In this document: one piece after another, positions 4,500 through 64,000 of the stretch
How the letters are laid out: every line of letters starts with the position of its first letter
How positions within the stretch are numbered: the stretch's first letter is position 1
From: Candidatus Latescibacterota bacterium
GTDB taxonomy: Bacteria; Latescibacterota; UBA2968
Reading direction: 5' to 3'
NCBI GenBank assembly: GCA_965198115.1
Contig: OZ240241.1
Location: 2,240,001-2,304,000 of the forward strand
Length of the DNA: 64,000 bases
Position numbers and translations under genes: made by a program
The notes under the pieces: generated by a model
Database searches by the model: none
Seen by the model: the letters and a program-made list of their open reading frames with translations, nothing else
Told to the model about the DNA's origin: nothing

Positions 4500-5887
4500 G
4501 GTGTTGTGCCTATCGTAGTTGAAACTTAGAGGGCTCCAAACTTACGTTGGGTAGACGTGTAGGAGCGTATACCCGTAAGAAAGGAGCCCAGATGGAGAAG
4601 CTATTTGTAGGCGATGGTGAAGTCAAGGTTGAGGGCGATGTCATCGATTTGGAGACGCGTTTGTCGGTGATCCAGGCGTTGATCCCGTTGGGTCTGGAGG
4701 CAGTGGCAGACCTCCTCCAGCAGGAGGTCGAGCAGCTCGCAGGCGTTCGGTATGCGCGCAAAGGTTCGGAGCAGGCGCATCGTCGGTGGGGAAGCCAGAA
4801 GGGATCCGTGTATCTGATGGACCAGAAGCTCCCGTTAGACGTTCCCCGGGTGCGCGACGTCGAGACCGACGCAGAGGTTTCCCTGGCTGCATACCGGGCT
4901 CTACAGACGCCCAAGAAGACGGACGAGGGGCTGTTGCTTCGTGTTCTCAAGGGGATCTCGTGCCGCAACTACAAGGCCTGTGCCGAATCGGTTCCAGAAG
5001 CGTTTGGTATCTCAGCGTCCTCCGTCTCGCGGCGGTTCATCAAAGCCACCGCGAAGAAGCGGAAGCAGTTCCAGGAGCGTCCCCTCGACGACTACGGCTT
5101 CGTGACCCTGTTCATTGACGGAAAGAGCTTTGCCGACGAAGAGATCGTGATCGCTCCGGGGGTCACGATGGACGGCCAGAAGATCCCCCTGGGCTTCGTC
5201 GAATCGGCGACGGAGAACGAACGGATCTGCCGCCAGCTGATCCAGGACCTCATCCGGAGAGGCCTGTGCTACGACCAGGGCCTTCTCGTTGTGCTTGACG
5301 GCTCAAAGGGACTCCGCAGTGCTGTCACCAAAGCCCTCAAAGGGTATGTGCGCGTGCATCGCTGTCAGTGGCACAAGCGCGAGAATGTCGTCAGCTATCT
5401 CCCGGAGAGGGAACGTCCAAGAGTTCGACGGAAGCTCCAGAAAGCCTATGACTGCGACACCTACGAGGAGGCAAAGGCCGCACTCGAATCACTTAAACCC
5501 GAACTGAAGCTGATGAATCAGTCTGCCGTAACGAGCCTCGAGGAAGGCCTGGAGGAAACCCTGACCCTCCACCGGCTGGGTATGCTCCCATTCCTGAAAC
5601 GAAGCTTCCGAACCACCAACTGCATCGAAGCCCTCAACAGCAGGACCGGCGAGCTCACTCGGAAGGTCAGACGCTGGAACAACTCTCCCCAGAGACACAG
5701 ATGGGTGGCTGCCGCACTCCTCGACATCGAACCTCGCCTGCGACGCGTGAGCGGATACAAACATCTTCCCCTACTCAGGCAAGCACTGAACAAAAATCTG
5801 AATCTCGACAACGAACAGAATGCTCAAAAGAGAGCCTGACCAAACTACGGGGCCCGATGAGTTTTCAACTGACTATGGGACTTGACC
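4500..5887 (+). mobile_element. IS256-family element B (inner, nested)
   Basis: IRs GGTGTTGTGCCTATCGTAGTTGAAAC / rc GGTCAAGTCCCATAGTCAGTTGAAAAC; flanking 8-mers CTTTCTAT (4492-4499) and CTTTCTCT (5888-5895), one mismatch. Confidence 0.82.
4547..5839 (+). CDS. IS256-family transposase
   Basis: LFIDG, VVLDGSKGL, HRCQWHK, RTTNCIE motifs; true start probably ATG 4592 after AAGGAG. Confidence 0.92.
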   Translation: MGRRVGAYTRKKGAQMEKLFVGDGEVKVEGDVIDLETRLSVIQALIPLGLEAVADLLQQEVEQLAGVRYARKGSEQAHRRWGSQKGSVYLMDQKLPLDVPRVRDVETDAEVSLAAYRALQTPKKTDEGLLLRVLKGISCRNYKACAESVPEAFGISASSVSRRFIKATAKKRKQFQERPLDDYGFVTLFIDGKSFADEEIVIAPGVTMDGQKIPLGFVESATENERICRQLIQDLIRRGLCYDQGLLVVLDGSKGLRSAVTKALKGYVRVHRCQWHKRENVVSYLPERERPRVRRKLQKAYDCDTYEEAKAALESLKPELKLMNQSAVTSLEEGLEETLTLHRLGMLPFLKRSFRTTNCIEALNSRTGELTRKVRRWNNSPQRHRWVAAALLDIEPRLRRVSGYKHLPLLRQALNKNLNLDNEQNAQKRA

Positions 5888-6212
5888 CTTTCTCTTTTTC
5901 CACACCTTTTGATTATAGCTCATGTTTTACGGAACAACTCTTCATTGTCATAGGAGATGCTATGAATAAGCCGCAACGCCCGCACTTTGAGGGTGGAGAA
6001 AACATAGCAATGAAAATACCTCCACACTTATTCGACCAGACCGTCGCCTTTTATAGGGACACGCTAGGACTGCCTCCATTGAAGGTTGAGCCGAATTCGT
6101 GCGGTTTTAGGTTCGGTGCGGTTGAGTTGTGGCTCGACCGTGTTCCCACGATGAGCCAGGCAGAGCTATGGTTGTAAAGCCCGCGGTTGTCTGGACACTC
6201 GGGTGAGTGTAT

Positions 6213-7106
6213 TCAGGCGGCCTTTCGAGTTGCCGTGAGTGCGTTTCTAGCCTGTTCGGGCGTCTTGTAGCCGTGACGTTCGATGATCCACCTGTGGTTG
6301 TATCTGTCCCGAAACTCAAGGAGTGCGAGGCGCAGGTCTTCGATGGTACTGAAGTGTCTAACCCACAGGAGGTTTTCTTTGAGGGTACGGATGAACCGCT
6401 CGGCGCATCCGTTGCCTTCTGGCTCACGCACGAAACTCGGCGATGTTTGGACGCCGAGGAATGCGATCTCGTTCTGGAAGTCGTCAGAGACGTATTGTGA
6501 CCCGTGATCGTGTCGGAGCTCCAGTCCTTCGGCGATGTTTTCTTCGAAGCCCCCGAAGTGTTCACGGATGCCCTGTCGGATCGGCTCGAGAGCCTCAAAG
6601 CGGTTGGCCGTCTTGGAGGCGTGAATGCCCACACACTCGCACGTGCAGTGGTCGATCGCGATAAACACGGAGGCTCTGCCCTCGTCGACCGTGGGCGTCA
6701 CAGTCAGGTCGGTGCCCCACATCTGATCGGGCTTCTCGGTCGTAATCGTGCCATCGTGGGCTCGTCGTTCGCGACGCCGTCCTGGACGCGCCTGGAGCCC
6801 GTTTTCACGCATCAACCGGCGGACCCGATCCTTTGACGTCCGCATACCGTGAAAGCGAAGCCTGGCCCAGATCTTGCGGTATCCTTCGCCGTGGAAGGGT
6901 GACGCGTCGATCTCCTGCTGAATGAGGGAGACCAATTCCTCATCGGTACCCGCTCCGACCGGGCCTCGCTTCCGGGGTTGCCGAAGATCGGTTACGGATG
7001 AACGACGAAGCTGGCTGTGCACCGTGGAACGGGGTATCTGCAACACTTTGCACACGCGTTTAATGCTGTAGCGTCTCCCCGTGGAGGGCGAAAGGACCTC
7101 ACTCAT
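6213..7106 (-). CDS. IS3-family transposase OrfB (integrase core)
   Basis: GYRKIW, WGTDLT, RHDHGSQY, NGCAERFIRTLK (DDE triad). Confidence 0.93.
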   Translation of the reverse strand: MSEVLSPSTGRRYSIKRVCKVLQIPRSTVHSQLRRSSVTDLRQPRKRGPVGAGTDEELVSLIQQEIDASPFHGEGYRKIWARLRFHGMRTSKDRVRRLMRENGLQARPGRRRERRAHDGTITTEKPDQMWGTDLTVTPTVDEGRASVFIAIDHCTCECVGIHASKTANRFEALEPIRQGIREHFGGFEENIAEGLELRHDHGSQYVSDDFQNEIAFLGVQTSPSFVREPEGNGCAERFIRTLKENLLWVRHFSTIEDLRLALLEFRDRYNHRWIIERHGYKTPEQARNALTATRKAA

Positions 7107-7486
7107 TTCCGCGACCTCCGATGCGCCAAAGGGCGGCGGGCTTCCAGACGATCGATTCTTTGTTGCAGCAGCTCGTTGTCCATCGTGAGCTCGCCAATCT
7201 TCGCCTGGAGGTCCTTGACCCTCTCGTCACGCTCGTCGCTCAGACGAGAGCGTAGTGCGGCCTGGGCGCCAGAGTGGAACTGATCGCGCCACTCGCTCAA
7301 TTTAGCTGCCGTTACTCCCAGATCGCGAGAGACGCTGTCGAGGCTCTCGCCACGCATCACACGTAATACGGCTTCGGCCTTCTTCTTCACGGAGAAACGA
7401 CCCTGCGAAGTCGCGCTTGGATCGGCTGGGCCTCCGCTCGCTCTCGCTCGCTCCGCCCCAACCGATCCCCTAGTAGCCTTGTTCAT
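7103..7486 (-). CDS. IS3-family transposase OrfA (HTH)
   Basis: FSVKKKAEAVLRVMRGESLDSVSRDLGV HTH plus a coiled coil; ATGA overlap with orfB. Confidence 0.9.
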   Translation of the reverse strand: MNKATRGSVGAERARASGGPADPSATSQGRFSVKKKAEAVLRVMRGESLDSVSRDLGVTAAKLSEWRDQFHSGAQAALRSRLSDERDERVKDLQAKIGELTMDNELLQQRIDRLEARRPLAHRRSRK

Positions 7487-7916
7487 GGTGGACCCTCCTT
7501 TTCGACCTACTGTAGGTCAACGGAGTGTCCAAGAAAACCCCGGGGCGCTGGATGCAGAGCTATGGTTGCAAGTGGATACGCCCGACGTGATGGCGGCCAG
7601 TGAGTATCTTGAACAAAAAGGAGCAGTTCGTTGTGACGAAATCGAACCTCTACCAGATGGATTCGAGTGATGCTGGATCAGCAGTCCAACGAGCATTATT
7701 CACCTCATCTCTCGAACTGATAGGTGATCACGGGTAGGATAGTACGTTAATCCAGTAGGGACCACATCCTCTAACAACCGTGTGCGGCCGCTCCTTTCGT
7801 CGCTCCGACCCAACCTTCCCTCGTGCCTGGGTCACGTTCGCACACGGCGGAGACGTTAAGTGCCATGACGTGCCAGAAAGGCGGTTGCCCATCCCTAGGC
7901 CGCCTCGGATCAAACT

Positions 7917-17395: not shown

Positions 17396-17647
17396 CTGCT
17401 GTCGGAGCGATCTAACCCAAACTCACGAATTTCATCGAAATTACGTTGGATACGTGCCTCAGTTCAATCGCTCAAGGCATAACCTCGTTTCCCATCAGGC
17501 GATCGCCTTTCGGGCGTAGCGAACGACACTCGGATTCGGATCGTGGAGTGCGATTTCAAACAGGGAGCGGTTGGCATCTTGTCCAGCGCCCCGGGGTTTT
17601 CTTGGACACTCCGTTGACCTACAGTAGGTCGAAAAGGAGGGTCCACC

Positions 17648-18031
17648 ATGAACAAGGCTACTAGGGGATCGGTTGGGGCGGAGCGAGCGAGAGCGAGCGG
17701 AGGCCCAGCCGATCCAAGCGCGACTTCGCAGGGTCGTTTCTCCGTGAAGAAGAAGGCCGAAGCCGTATTACGTGTGATGCGTGGCGAGAGCCTCGACAGC
17801 GTCTCTCGCGATCTGGGAGTAACGGCAGCTAAATTGAGCGAGTGGCGCGATCAGTTCCACTCTGGCGCCCAGGCCGCACTACGCTCTCGTCTGAGCGACG
17901 AGCGTGACGAGAGGGTCAAGGACCTCCAGGCGAAGATTGGCGAGCTCACGATGGACAACGAGCTGCTGCAACAAAGAATCGATCGTCTGGAAGCCCGCCG
18001 CCCTTTGGCGCATCGGAGGTCGCGGAAATGA
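17648..18031 (+). CDS. IS3-family transposase OrfA
   Basis: Identical protein to 7103-7486; AAGGAGG RBS. Confidence 0.9.
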   Translation: MNKATRGSVGAERARASGGPADPSATSQGRFSVKKKAEAVLRVMRGESLDSVSRDLGVTAAKLSEWRDQFHSGAQAALRSRLSDERDERVKDLQAKIGELTMDNELLQQRIDRLEARRPLAHRRSRK

Positions 18032-18921
18032 GTGAGGTCCTTTCGCCCTCCACGGGGAGACGCTACAGCATTAAACGCGTGTGCAAAGTGTTGCAGATAC
18101 CCCGTTCCACGGTGCACAGCCAGCTTCGTCGTTCATCCGTAACCGATCTTCGGCAACCCCGGAAGCGAGGCCCGGTCGGAGCGGGTACCGATGAGGAATT
18201 GGTCTCCCTCATTCAGCAGGAGATCGACGCGTCACCCTTCCACGGCGAAGGATACCGCAAGATCTGGGCCAGGCTTCGCTTTCACGGTATGCGGACGTCA
18301 AAGGATCGGGTCCGCCGGTTGATGCGTGAAAACGGGCTCCAGGCGCGTCCAGGACGGCGTCGCGAACGACGAGCCCACGATGGCACGATTACGACCGAGA
18401 AGCCCGATCAGATGTGGGGCACCGACCTGACTGTGACGCCCACGGTCGACGAGGGCAGAGCCTCCGTGTTTATCGCGATCGACCACTGCACGTGCGAGTG
18501 TGTGGGCATTCACGCCTCCAAGACGGCCAACCGCTTTGAGGCTCTCGAGCCGATCCGACAGGGCATCCGTGAACACTTCGGGGGCTTCGAAGAAAACATC
18601 GCCGAAGGACTGGAGCTCCGACACGATCACGGGTCACAATACGTCTCTGACGACTTCCAGAACGAGATCGCATTCCTCGGCGTCCAAACATCGCCGAGTT
18701 TCGTGCGTGAGCCAGAAGGCAACGGATGCGCCGAGCGGTTCATCCGTACCCTCAAAGAAAACCTCCTGTGGGTTAGACACTTCAGTACCATCGAAGACCT
18801 GCGCCTCGCACTCCTTGAGTTTCGGGACAGATACAACCACAGGTGGATCATCGAACGTCACGGCTACAAGACGCCCGAACAGGCTAGAAACGCACTCACG
18901 GCAACTCGAAAGGCCGCCTGA
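18028..18921 (+). CDS. IS3-family transposase OrfB
   Basis: Identical protein to 6213-7106. Confidence 0.93.
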   Translation: MSEVLSPSTGRRYSIKRVCKVLQIPRSTVHSQLRRSSVTDLRQPRKRGPVGAGTDEELVSLIQQEIDASPFHGEGYRKIWARLRFHGMRTSKDRVRRLMRENGLQARPGRRRERRAHDGTITTEKPDQMWGTDLTVTPTVDEGRASVFIAIDHCTCECVGIHASKTANRFEALEPIRQGIREHFGGFEENIAEGLELRHDHGSQYVSDDFQNEIAFLGVQTSPSFVREPEGNGCAERFIRTLKENLLWVRHFSTIEDLRLALLEFRDRYNHRWIIERHGYKTPEQARNALTATRKAA

Positions 18922-20373
18922 ATACACTCACCCGAGTGTCCAGACAACCGCGGGCTTTACAGCGGTTGGCATCTTGATCAAGGTGGTCCAGTAGTGCGGC
19001 CGTTTCCAGACGCACGCACGCGCTTGGATCCTTCAGACCACGCTCAAACCATCGTGCTGCTCCCCCACCGCCGTGCCTGGCGAGTACGGCTACGGCCGAT
19101 GCCCGGATTCTTACGTCTTCTGAGTTGACGAGCGGGGCCAGGACGGTGCGATCTATATGATCGCAGTGAATCATCCCCTGAAGCGCCGCGACACGGACAT
19201 CCCTCGACTCATCCTCCAGGAACATCAGGCACCAGTCGAACAAATCAGGAACCTCGAGCTCCGCGAGGCGCTTCAACCCGCGGACACGACGTTTTGCATT
19301 CGTAGACTCCAACCAACTTAGAGTTTTCTCCTGGATTTCAACGTTCGGAGGTTCTTGCCGGGGTATCTTGGGTTTTGCCTTGGACCGAGGAGTACCGAAT
19401 TCTAGCTTTTCGAATTCGACATTCGTATCTGGAAAATGTTCCGGCAGCCACTGTTTTGCCTTCTTCAATTACTCTTTGACATCCGTTCTGCGCTCAGGTT
19501 GAATCGTAATTCGATGTTGATGCCAGCGCCATAGGCGTAGGAGACCGGGGTGACTCGCGTTGACGCCTCTTGGCGGCCGGTGGCCAAGCAGCTGGTTCAC
19601 CCAGTCGGCAACCTCACCGGGGGTGTTCAATTCGACGATCCGCCTCAGCTTCTTACACTGGGCAGCTGGAGTGAGGTCCCCTTCAGCTTTCGGGTCGTGC
19701 TGAACCTGCTGGCGCAATAGCCTGCAAGCATCCGGATCGGACAAAACACCGTCAAGTTCATCCTCGAAATCCTTCAGCACCGCGCGCCAGCGTCCACTGG
19801 TTTTGGAACGCTGCAGGAGGGTGGCGATGGCCTGAACCCCGACCTTCCCCGGCTGATGGGCTGCCTGGAATACCTTTTCCCATACGGATATATCTTGAAC
19901 ATCATTGCGGCAGGGACAGAGCTCCTGCATCGCTTTTGAGCGCTCGCTGAAGGAACCCTCATCAAGGGCACGGCTAATCTGAGAGATCTTGTTTGGGTGC
20001 ATCTGTGACCCCTTCTGATACAAACTGATGGGAATGGTTGATATACGAACCTGTTACAACTTCCCAATCTTGGCAGGTCATCAGGTCAGTCAACCCATTG
20101 GGTTTCCTCATTTTATACTAAAGCGGATGCACGCAGGCGTTTTTGAAGTCTTTCAGTCTATATTTATGGAAGAGAGTCTCCCAAGCTTGGCGTCTTACTT
20201 CGGCTGCCCGACCAGAACCACCCACCCCCACACTTACAGCGCCGTCGGGCAGCCTGTAAGTTACCCGCGACTGGGCTCCCAGTCGCGGGATCGGTAAAAG
20301 CTATTGGCTTTCCAATTTAGGGCGCTAAAGGACGTAGCGCTCACGATTCCGGAGGGAATGGGTAAACCCCGGC

Positions 20374-61203: not shown

Positions 61204-62163
61204 GAAAACTCTCTAAACCTCTGCGCGTGTTGAGGGCTTTTGGTTCGGCCCTGGCCACTCAGTGTTCTCAGTGGCGCCTTTCATGCTCTGACGAGGTCTT
61301 CAAGCACGTCCACAATCTCATCCACCTGAGGCACGACGGCCGCTTCCAGCGAGGGACTATAGGGCGTCGGTGTGTGCAGTCCGCTGAGTCGGCGAATCGG
61401 AGCCTTCAGGGCATCGAATCCATCGTCGACGACCTGCGCGGCGATCTCCGCACCGACGCCACAAGGACTGAACGCTTCGTCTACGATTGCCAGTCTCCCC
61501 GTTTTCCCGACCGACTCGAGGATCGTCTTCGTATCCAAAGGCGCCAGTGTGCGGGGATCGATCACCTCGATCGAAACACCCGATTCGGCCAGAGTCTCCC
61601 CTGCCTCCATCGCCCGGTCCACCATCGCACCTACCGCGACCACCGTCGCGTCCGTGCCTGGCCGTGCGATTCGCGCTTCGCCGAATGGAATCCCGTAGTC
61701 TCCCTCCGGCACCGGCCCCTTCTTCGAAATCAGCGATCGGTGCTCGAGGAAGAAGACTGGATCGTCGCTGTGTAGCGCGGTCGTGAACAGCCCCTTCGCA
61801 TCTGCCGGCGTCGTCGGCACGACGATCCTGAACCCGGGCAGGTTCATGAACGTGGCAAAGTAGTTTCCCGAATGGTGCGTCGCCGCTGAACCCCCGATTC
61901 CGATGCAGCCACGGAACAGAACGGGCATCTTCACCCGTCCGCTGCTCATGTATTGGATCTTGGCGATCTGATTCGCCATCTCGCCCATCGCGTCCAGCAG
62001 GAAGTCCAGAACCATGAAATCGACGGTCGGTCGTGACCCCGTCATCGCCGCGCCCGTACACATTCCCACAAACCCACGTTCGCAGATCGGTGTATCCCTT
62101 AACCGTTCGGGTCCGAATCGATCTGTAAAGCCCGCGGTTGTCTGGACACTCGGGTGAGTGTAT

Positions 62164-63057
62164 TCAGGCGGCCTTTCGAGTTGCCGTGAGTGCGTTTCTA
62201 GCCTGTTCGGGCGTCTTGTAGCCGTGACGTTCGATGATCCACCTGTGGTTGTATCTGTCCCGAAACTCAAGGAGTGCGAGGCGCAGGTCTTCGATGGTAC
62301 TGAAGTGTCTAACCCACAGGAGGTTTTCTTTGAGGGTACGGATGAACCGCTCGGCGCATCCGTTGCCTTCTGGCTCACGCACGAAACTCGGCGATGTTTG
62401 GACGCCGAGGAATGCGATCTCGTTCTGGAAGTCGTCAGAGACGTATTGTGACCCGTGATCGTGTCGGAGCTCCAGTCCTTCGGCGATGTTTTCTTCGAAG
62501 CCCCCGAAGTGTTCACGGATGCCCTGTCGGATCGGCTCGAGAGCCTCAAAGCGGTTGGCCGTCTTGGAGGCGTGAATGCCCACACACTCGCACGTGCAGT
62601 GGTCGATCGCGATAAACACGGAGGCTCTGCCCTCGTCGACCGTGGGCGTCACAGTCAGGTCGGTGCCCCACATCTGATCGGGCTTCTCGGTCGTAATCGT
62701 GCCATCGTGGGCTCGTCGTTCGCGACGCCGTCCTGGACGCGCCTGGAGCCCGTTTTCACGCATCAACCGGCGGACCCGATCCTTTGACGTCCGCATACCG
62801 TGAAAGCGAAGCCTGGCCCAGATCTTGCGGTATCCTTCGCCGTGGAAGGGTGACGCGTCGATCTCCTGCTGAATGAGGGAGACCAATTCCTCATCGGTAC
62901 CCGCTCCGACCGGGCCTCGCTTCCGGGGTTGCCGAAGATCGGTTACGGATGAACGACGAAGCTGGCTGTGCACCGTGGAACGGGGTATCTGCAACACTTT
63001 GCACACGCGTTTAATGCTGTAGCGTCTCCCCGTGGAGGGCGAAAGGACCTCACTCAT
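62164..63057 (-). CDS. IS3-family transposase OrfB
   Basis: Identical protein to the other copies. Confidence 0.93.
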   Translation of the reverse strand: MSEVLSPSTGRRYSIKRVCKVLQIPRSTVHSQLRRSSVTDLRQPRKRGPVGAGTDEELVSLIQQEIDASPFHGEGYRKIWARLRFHGMRTSKDRVRRLMRENGLQARPGRRRERRAHDGTITTEKPDQMWGTDLTVTPTVDEGRASVFIAIDHCTCECVGIHASKTANRFEALEPIRQGIREHFGGFEENIAEGLELRHDHGSQYVSDDFQNEIAFLGVQTSPSFVREPEGNGCAERFIRTLKENLLWVRHFSTIEDLRLALLEFRDRYNHRWIIERHGYKTPEQARNALTATRKAA

Positions 63058-63437
63058 TTCCGCGACCTCCGATGCGCCAAAGGGCGGCGGGCTTCCAGAC
63101 GATCGATTCTTTGTTGCAGCAGCTCGTTGTCCATCGTGAGCTCGCCAATCTTCGCCTGGAGGTCCTTGACCCTCTCGTCACGCTCGTCGCTCGGACGAGA
63201 GCGTAGTGCGGCCTGGGCGCCAGAGTGGAACTGATCGCGCCACTCGCTCAATTTAGCTGCCGTTACTCCCAGATCGCGAGAGACGCTGTCGAGGCTCTCG
63301 CCACGCATCACACGTAATACGGCTTCGGCCTTCTTCTTCACGGAGAAACGACCCTGCGAAGTCGCGCTTGGATCGGCTGGGCCTCCGCTCGCTCTCGCTC
63401 GCTCCGCCCCAACCGATCCCCTGGTAGCCTTGTTCAT
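63054..63437 (-). CDS. IS3-family transposase OrfA
   Basis: One L>P change (RSRPSDER) versus the other copies. Confidence 0.9.
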   Translation of the reverse strand: MNKATRGSVGAERARASGGPADPSATSQGRFSVKKKAEAVLRVMRGESLDSVSRDLGVTAAKLSEWRDQFHSGAQAALRSRPSDERDERVKDLQAKIGELTMDNELLQQRIDRLEARRPLAHRRSRK

Positions 63438-64000
63438 GGTGGACCCTCCTTTTCGACCTACTGTAGGTCAACGGAGTGTCCAAGAAAACCCCGGGGCGCT
63501 GGAGGGTCCGAATCGATCGTAGAGACCGACCGTCGTTTTGAAATTCCCGCCCCTCCGACCGATACCCTGGCCGACCACGAAAATGGACGCGTCCTCTTCC
63601 ATGGCCGTCGTCAACGCCTCGAGCGTAGCCTCCGTGAACGTCAGTTCTCGTGTGCGTGCGCGAGGATCGGCCGCAACGAATGGTGCCACGTCATCGCTGT
63701 AGACGAAATCTGCCGCGGTGCTCGGATCGGGCAATGGACTGTCCTCCGCGAACGCCATCGCTTCTCCGACACGGACGTCGATCTCCTGATCAATCGCATC
63801 GAATTCCCCATCCTCCACCCCTCCCTCCCCCACCACCTTCTGACGGAAAGTGACAATCGGATCTCGCGCCTTCCAGACCTCGATCTCCTCTTCCGTTCGA
63901 TACCCGGCTAGCCGCATGCCTTCCGCGTGAGGACGCGTGCGATACGTCTTGCACTCGATCAGCGTCGGCCCCTCTCCTTTTCTCGCCCGCTCGACGGCTT

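Follow-up and report, generated by a model that had tools for sequence, protein, structure and literature searches.

A two-ORF IS3-family insertion sequence with 13-15 bp target-site duplications, and an OrfB linker feature that accompanies duplication length among its relatives

The window, by which we mean the whole analysed stretch of 64,000 nucleotides from a Candidatus Latescibacterota bacterium (contig OZ240241.1), contains three copies of one insertion sequence, each 1380 bp long. Copy 1 (6173-7552, minus strand), copy 2 (17582-18961, plus strand) and copy 3 (62124-63503, minus strand) lie where the earlier note had placed them; copy 1 matches copy 2 at every base, and copy 3 departs from them at two. 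In copy 2, the left terminal inverted repeat (17582-17611, plus strand) starts with TCC, not with the TG expected at both ends of an IS3-family element, and the right one (18934-18961, minus strand) starts with TGT. The inner motif lies two bases deeper at the left end than at the right, an offset that recurs in relatives, many of which carry TG at the left end. Both open reading frames are on the plus strand. orfA (17648-18031, 127 aa) codes for a helix-turn-helix domain (HTH_Tnp_1) followed by a segment that looks zipper-like by eye. orfB (18028-18921, 297 aa), in the -1 frame relative to orfA and overlapping it by ATGA, codes for an HTH_21 domain and an integrase core with residues D133, D200, E236 and K243. 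The OrfB linker, residues 104-117 (18337-18378, plus strand), is without the Gly-Pro pair that is present in all relatives with short repeats. Direct sequence comparison places the 15-bp target-site duplication of copy 2 at 17567-17581 on the left and at 18962-18976 on the right (plus strand). Just upstream of copy 1, a 430-aa ORF (4547-5839, plus strand) encodes what we take to resemble an IS256-type transposase.

The heptamer C_CCT_TTG (18001-18007, plus strand), in X_XXY_YYZ register, is the predicted site of -1 frameshifting for OrfAB. In 70 of 79 rows C_CCT_TTN precedes the overlap in the register needed for frameshifting, CCCTTT occurs within the heptamer zone in 146 of 168 loci, and the heptamer is kept despite low use of its codons in clade orfB genes (CCT in 97 of 1025 proline codons, TTG/TTA in 228 of 1622 leucine codons). 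A passage of PMC4066793 counts C_CC.U_UU.G among the motifs that shift by more than 0.10% without stimulators. No stable hairpin was found downstream of the heptamer (z +0.99), and for this reason OrfAB frameshifting is given here as a prediction only. A GGAGG site ahead of the orfB ATG means that OrfB could also be made on its own. A search for promoters yielded a single weak site inside the element. The element is also present in two public RNA runs, X4 and X18, from a single study that carries the label sponge metagenome; one contig spans most of it, which is not proof of transcription. No circle junction was present in the contigs of four public runs, and contigs drop rare forms.

Transposases of the IS3 family have a DD(35)E integrase-type core with a lysine or arginine seven residues after the glutamate, and the core of OrfB follows this pattern. 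The predicted OrfB fold (pLDDT 87.5) matches IstA, TnsB and retroviral integrases; model confidence is lower in the linker (blocks of 80 and 65), and no sequence relative of OrfB was found among solved structures. Against the curated IS3 model NF033516 OrfB scores 177 bits, above the cut-off of 160. It falls short with 100 bits against the IS481 model (cut-off 224) and with 25 bits against the ISNCY_2 model NF033594 (cut-off 250), which we take to stand for the IS1202 family. The OrfB tree that the earlier note had proposed was built from 58 rows chosen for measured repeats: the clade itself, named IS2, IS3, IS51, IS150, IS1203, ISEc27 and ISPpu29, unnamed IS3 and IS481 model hits and one ISNCY_2 hit, with no named IS407. 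The two-ORF clade (support 100/99) is nested among IS3 subgroups, sister to the IS2 group (97/82, a position flagged by a long-branch warning), and is separate from IS481, whose rows are model hits and not named elements. IS2 elements resemble the clade in their two ORFs and in a similar linker end (RAHTG versus RAHDG), and differ in OrfB, which is about 26% identical; IS2 has an A-rich frameshift site. Membership in the IS2 subgroup was rejected: the clade is a sister group on a long branch and makes duplications of 4 or 14-15 bp, against the 5 bp stated for IS2 in a section of PMC10045372. IS481 membership was rejected on the two ORFs, in place of a single one, on the model score and on the tree, and IS1202 membership on the single long transposase expected there and on the model score.

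The 8.43 Mb genome, a single contig, was searched for copies assembly-wide. Fifteen full-length copies are 99.5-100% identical; with one internally deleted and one interrupted copy, 17 copies have both ends, and there are several fragments besides. The earlier note had wanted the flanks of every copy compared, and at this scale too the repeats are not of 3-5 bp. Exact 15-bp repeats accompany 12 of the 17 copies (eight direct, four with reciprocally swapped flanks), four have 13-15 bp with small deviations and one has none. The deviating copies carry, one each, an exact 14 bp, an exact 13 bp, 13 of 14 bp and 14 of 15 bp with one mismatch. Exact 15-mers flank copies 2 and 3 in the window, as had been reported, and the 13-14 bp given for copy 1 resolve into 13 identical bases and a single mismatch adjoining the left end. 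As a chance control, left flanks were paired with the right flanks of other loci, over 82 unrelated homologous loci; no match exceeded 5 bp. Public contigs of run X1 contain both flanks of the copy at 7136954, 15-mer included, and those of run X2 both flanks of copy 2 with zero differences; the source sample could itself be one of these runs. No empty site was found in public contigs, which carries no weight either way.

The four copies without a repeat of their own form two reciprocal pairs, between whose partners exact 15-mers are exchanged. Each pair is in opposite orientation (501668-503047 with 1778676-1780055, and 2877717-2879096 with 2896314-2897693; genome G000, contig C1). These are apparent inversions between copies, of about 1.28 Mb and of 17-20 kb, or else assembly misjoins. 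On the same contig, one copy (7467664-7470425) is broken in orfA by an insert of about 1.37 kb with a repeat of about 8 bp and keeps its outer 15-bp duplication intact, another (4052790-4054115) lacks 50 bp close to the beginning of orfA, and a fragment at 1433126-1433676 belongs to a diverged relative with 71% DNA identity. In window copy 1 and in one related insertion (L352), the long duplication is mismatched solely at the base adjoining the left end, possibly through imprecise processing of a non-canonical end.

Copy 3 lies inside a gene with an E1/transketolase domain. In the orthologue of this gene from the same genus its flanks overlap by exactly 15 bases and the 15-mer is present once; the repeat is therefore a true duplication, as the earlier note had argued. 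That note had also relied on restoration of the three interrupted genes upon removal of the element and one repeat. This stands for copy 1, where the longest reading frame is obtained at 14 bp, and for copy 3, where it is obtained at 15 bp; for copy 2 the test did not separate the candidate repeat lengths. As for the identity of these genes, Pfam detects HEAT and E1/transketolase domains in two of them, and the halves of the third, named earlier as VOC, have no Pfam match to that domain. The targets had been described as sharing no obvious sequence, and among 16 sites no strong consensus was found.

The two-ORF IS3-family group to which the element belongs is widespread. Matches on plasmids descend from 59% to 41% identity and then fall to about 30%, and at E up to 1e-40 the clade comprises at least 7,943 protein clusters (90% identity). 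In literature outside subscription journals, ISfinder and TnPedia we found no description of the clade, or of long duplications in any IS3 subgroup. The group is nevertheless not uncatalogued, because the named, two-subunit element ISGsu7 falls inside it: OrfB of one locus (L325) is the UniRef "Transposase of ISGsu7", a plasmid record annotates one clade orfA after ISGsu7, and one record annotation assigns it to the IS3 family. ISGsu7 shares with the window element the ATGA overlap, the CCCTTTG site, the lack of Gly-Pro and 46% OrfB identity; it differs in its basal branch and in repeats of 14 bp (five of six copies) instead of 15 bp. The passage and supplement rows of PMC2882325 that mention ISGsu7 give no repeat length. 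Of the "unrecognised IS3-related subgroup" suggested earlier, the relationship to IS3 and the distinction from IS481 hold, and the claim of being unrecognised does not. The IS3 subgroups duplicate 3, 4 or 5 bp according to parts of PMC10045372, on which the lengths used here for the family rest, and elements of the IS407 group 2-4 bp according to a passage of PMC3281130. The element is a variant and not a typical IS3 member, since its duplications are of 13-15 bp against the 3-5 bp of the family description; the earlier estimate of about one helical turn above the IS3 norm agrees with this.

A uniform end rule applied to 270 clade loci gave 168 distinct other insertions with both ends and 30-base flanks. 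Their repeats are bimodal: 51 are of 14-15 bp (14 bp in 32, 15 bp in 19), 30 of 3-5 bp (4 bp in 27, 3 bp in two, 5 bp in one), and nothing lies between 6 and 13 bp. The remaining 87 (0-2 bp) include short contigs, where collapsed copies probably mix flanks; they carry no weight either way. Long duplications thus recur in other genomes (51 of 81 informative insertions) and are not clade-wide. Among elements with several measured copies, none mixes the classes. Both classes occur on complete plasmids, among Alphaproteobacteria and within one host class, where G101 makes 4 bp and G142 14 bp. The G101 relative (63% OrfB identity) has terminal repeats nearly identical to those of the window element and yet 4 bp in all six intact copies of seven examined; the tips therefore do not set duplication length. 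The terminal-repeat sequence was rejected as determinant on this contrast and because left ends of either type, TCC or TG, are found with long and with short repeats alike. In the right flanks of two loci, L132 and L021, a second right-end-like repeat starts 4 and 1 bases past the right end. This suggests insertion next to an end already in place, leaving a short spacer, also in lineages where long duplications are expected.

On a tree built without the linker columns, length class changes four times, forced by well-supported branches, and the switching occurs among proteins that are 55-65% identical. A single origin of the long class was rejected (p-AU 0.003; 36 rows, linker columns removed). 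With the IS2 group as root, the tree suggests that 14 bp is ancestral and that the short class was gained once, followed by three returns to the long class, the window element among them, because the basal branches are long.

A first comparison of 20 elements, 11 long and nine short, gave two candidate OrfB positions. The rule that Gly-Pro in the linker goes with 4 bp and its lack with 14-15 bp was recorded before further loci were collected. Later loci agreed with it: those on complete plasmids and in other genomes (where one Gly-Pro locus had 3 bp and another no exact repeat), those of the basal branch, and those from another class of bacteria and from viral contigs. In the final tally, which includes the discovery rows, Gly-Pro is present in 30 of 30 short insertions and in none of 51 long ones. 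Across 42 elements it is the sole perfect feature among single or paired columns (16/16 short, 0/26 long); the linker has 16 residues in all short elements and 14-16 in the long. OrfB positions 166 and 234 had looked diagnostic and failed in new lineages, so that chance correlates do occur; proline alone and glycine alone each failed in some lineage. Many of the matching loci are kin, which leaves only four independent contrasts, and Gly-Pro tracks class in all four pairs (sign test p 0.125). That the Gly-Pro linker causes the change of stagger is predicted from this correlation, and we would give it somewhat less than an even chance. The transposase could instead set the stagger elsewhere, through several residues jointly, OrfA or the multimer state, with Gly-Pro merely accompanying it. 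Such an explanation draws on the small number of contrasts, on other columns that follow the classes in part, and on a comparison of OrfA made by eye alone in 21 elements. It is nonetheless unlikely in our judgement, as no other feature follows the classes without exception, and three long lineages lost Gly-Pro separately, by different changes.

Our favoured reading, held with moderate confidence, is that of a recently spread two-ORF IS3 element that makes duplications of 13-15, mostly 15, bp, whose transposase likely cuts one helical turn wider than those of its 4-bp relatives, the OrfB linker being the predicted determinant of that spacing. IS3-family elements transpose by a copy-out/paste-in route via a circle. 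From this knowledge of the family, -1 frameshifting at C_CCT_TTG would produce OrfAB, copying-out of the element would yield a circle, with the TGT right end the probable donor, and the junction of that circle would then be inserted into the target (PMC3219604 and PMC3299598 contain a partial basis for this route in IS3 elements). As the earlier note did, we infer a wider-cutting transpososome at this last step: the target strands would be cut one helical turn further apart than in the 4-bp relatives, and since a difference of 10-11 bases corresponds to one turn, the cut would move along by a turn and stay on the same face of the target. The end-binding helix-turn-helix and the catalytic core are connected by the linker, in which a Gly-Pro turn could fix the seating of the two cores. 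The Gly-Pro turn and a 16-residue linker would have produced the 4-bp geometry from a 14-bp ancestor, and three lineages, that of the window element included, would have dropped Gly-Pro and regained 14-15 bp. Alternatively, the geometry could be rigid and unchanged, the ends being joined to the target sequentially or the target looping between active sites, with repair filling the gap of 14-15 bases. The spread of 13-15 bp within one element and the mismatches beside the left end in copy 1 and L352 would fit such a course, and looping is among the options raised in a part of PMC10045372; it is improbable all the same, as the lengths are tight and multi-copy elements never mix classes, unlike IS481EU-7. 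Host factors, pre-existing repeats or assembly artefacts as the source of the long repeats are largely refuted and very improbable, for although the assembly is a single contig whose two reciprocal pairs could be misjoins, the empty site holds one 15-mer and both classes occur in one host class (G101, G142), in Alphaproteobacteria and on complete plasmids.

Duplication lengths that fall into discrete classes have precedents. IS481 and IS481EU, which have a single ORF and stand apart in the tree, show lengths spaced by about 10 bp (4-6, about 15 and about 25 bp), as stated in sections of PMC10045372. In the IS1202 family (ISAba32, ISTde1 and IS1202 subgroups), part of bioRxiv 10.1101/2022.12.17.520857 ties three classes (5-6, 15-17 and 27-28 bp) to transposase indels; there the classes follow subgroups, whereas the present clade switches four times among 55-65% identical proteins. 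The same sections of PMC10045372 describe discrete lengths for IS481, IS481EU and IS1202, offer no mechanism ("no clue"), and call the jump between lengths one helical turn apart among related transposases unexplained. What is new here is the repeated switching of class, the linker correlate and the conserved, predicted C_CCT_TTG frameshift site. More tentatively, the clade might be read as an undescribed sixth IS3 subgroup whose transposase linker contains a reversible switch, a Gly-Pro turn that was acquired once, disappeared three times and displaces the staggered cut by a full turn of the helix (4 versus 14-15 bp); this would explain the discrete lengths of IS481, IS481EU and IS1202 as well.

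Duplication length is used to classify families of insertion sequences, and the IS3 family is described by 3-5 bp. In the source genome, copies of this clade interrupt genes and bound the two apparent inversions. Related families provide precedents for the trait itself, and a member of the clade was already named; it is the repeated switching together with a two-residue correlate that makes the question testable. Natural pairs within the clade, 55-65% identical and with almost the same ends, come with a candidate of two residues, and one linker swap would test the switch. If the proposal is true, the stagger of insertion could be engineered through the linker.
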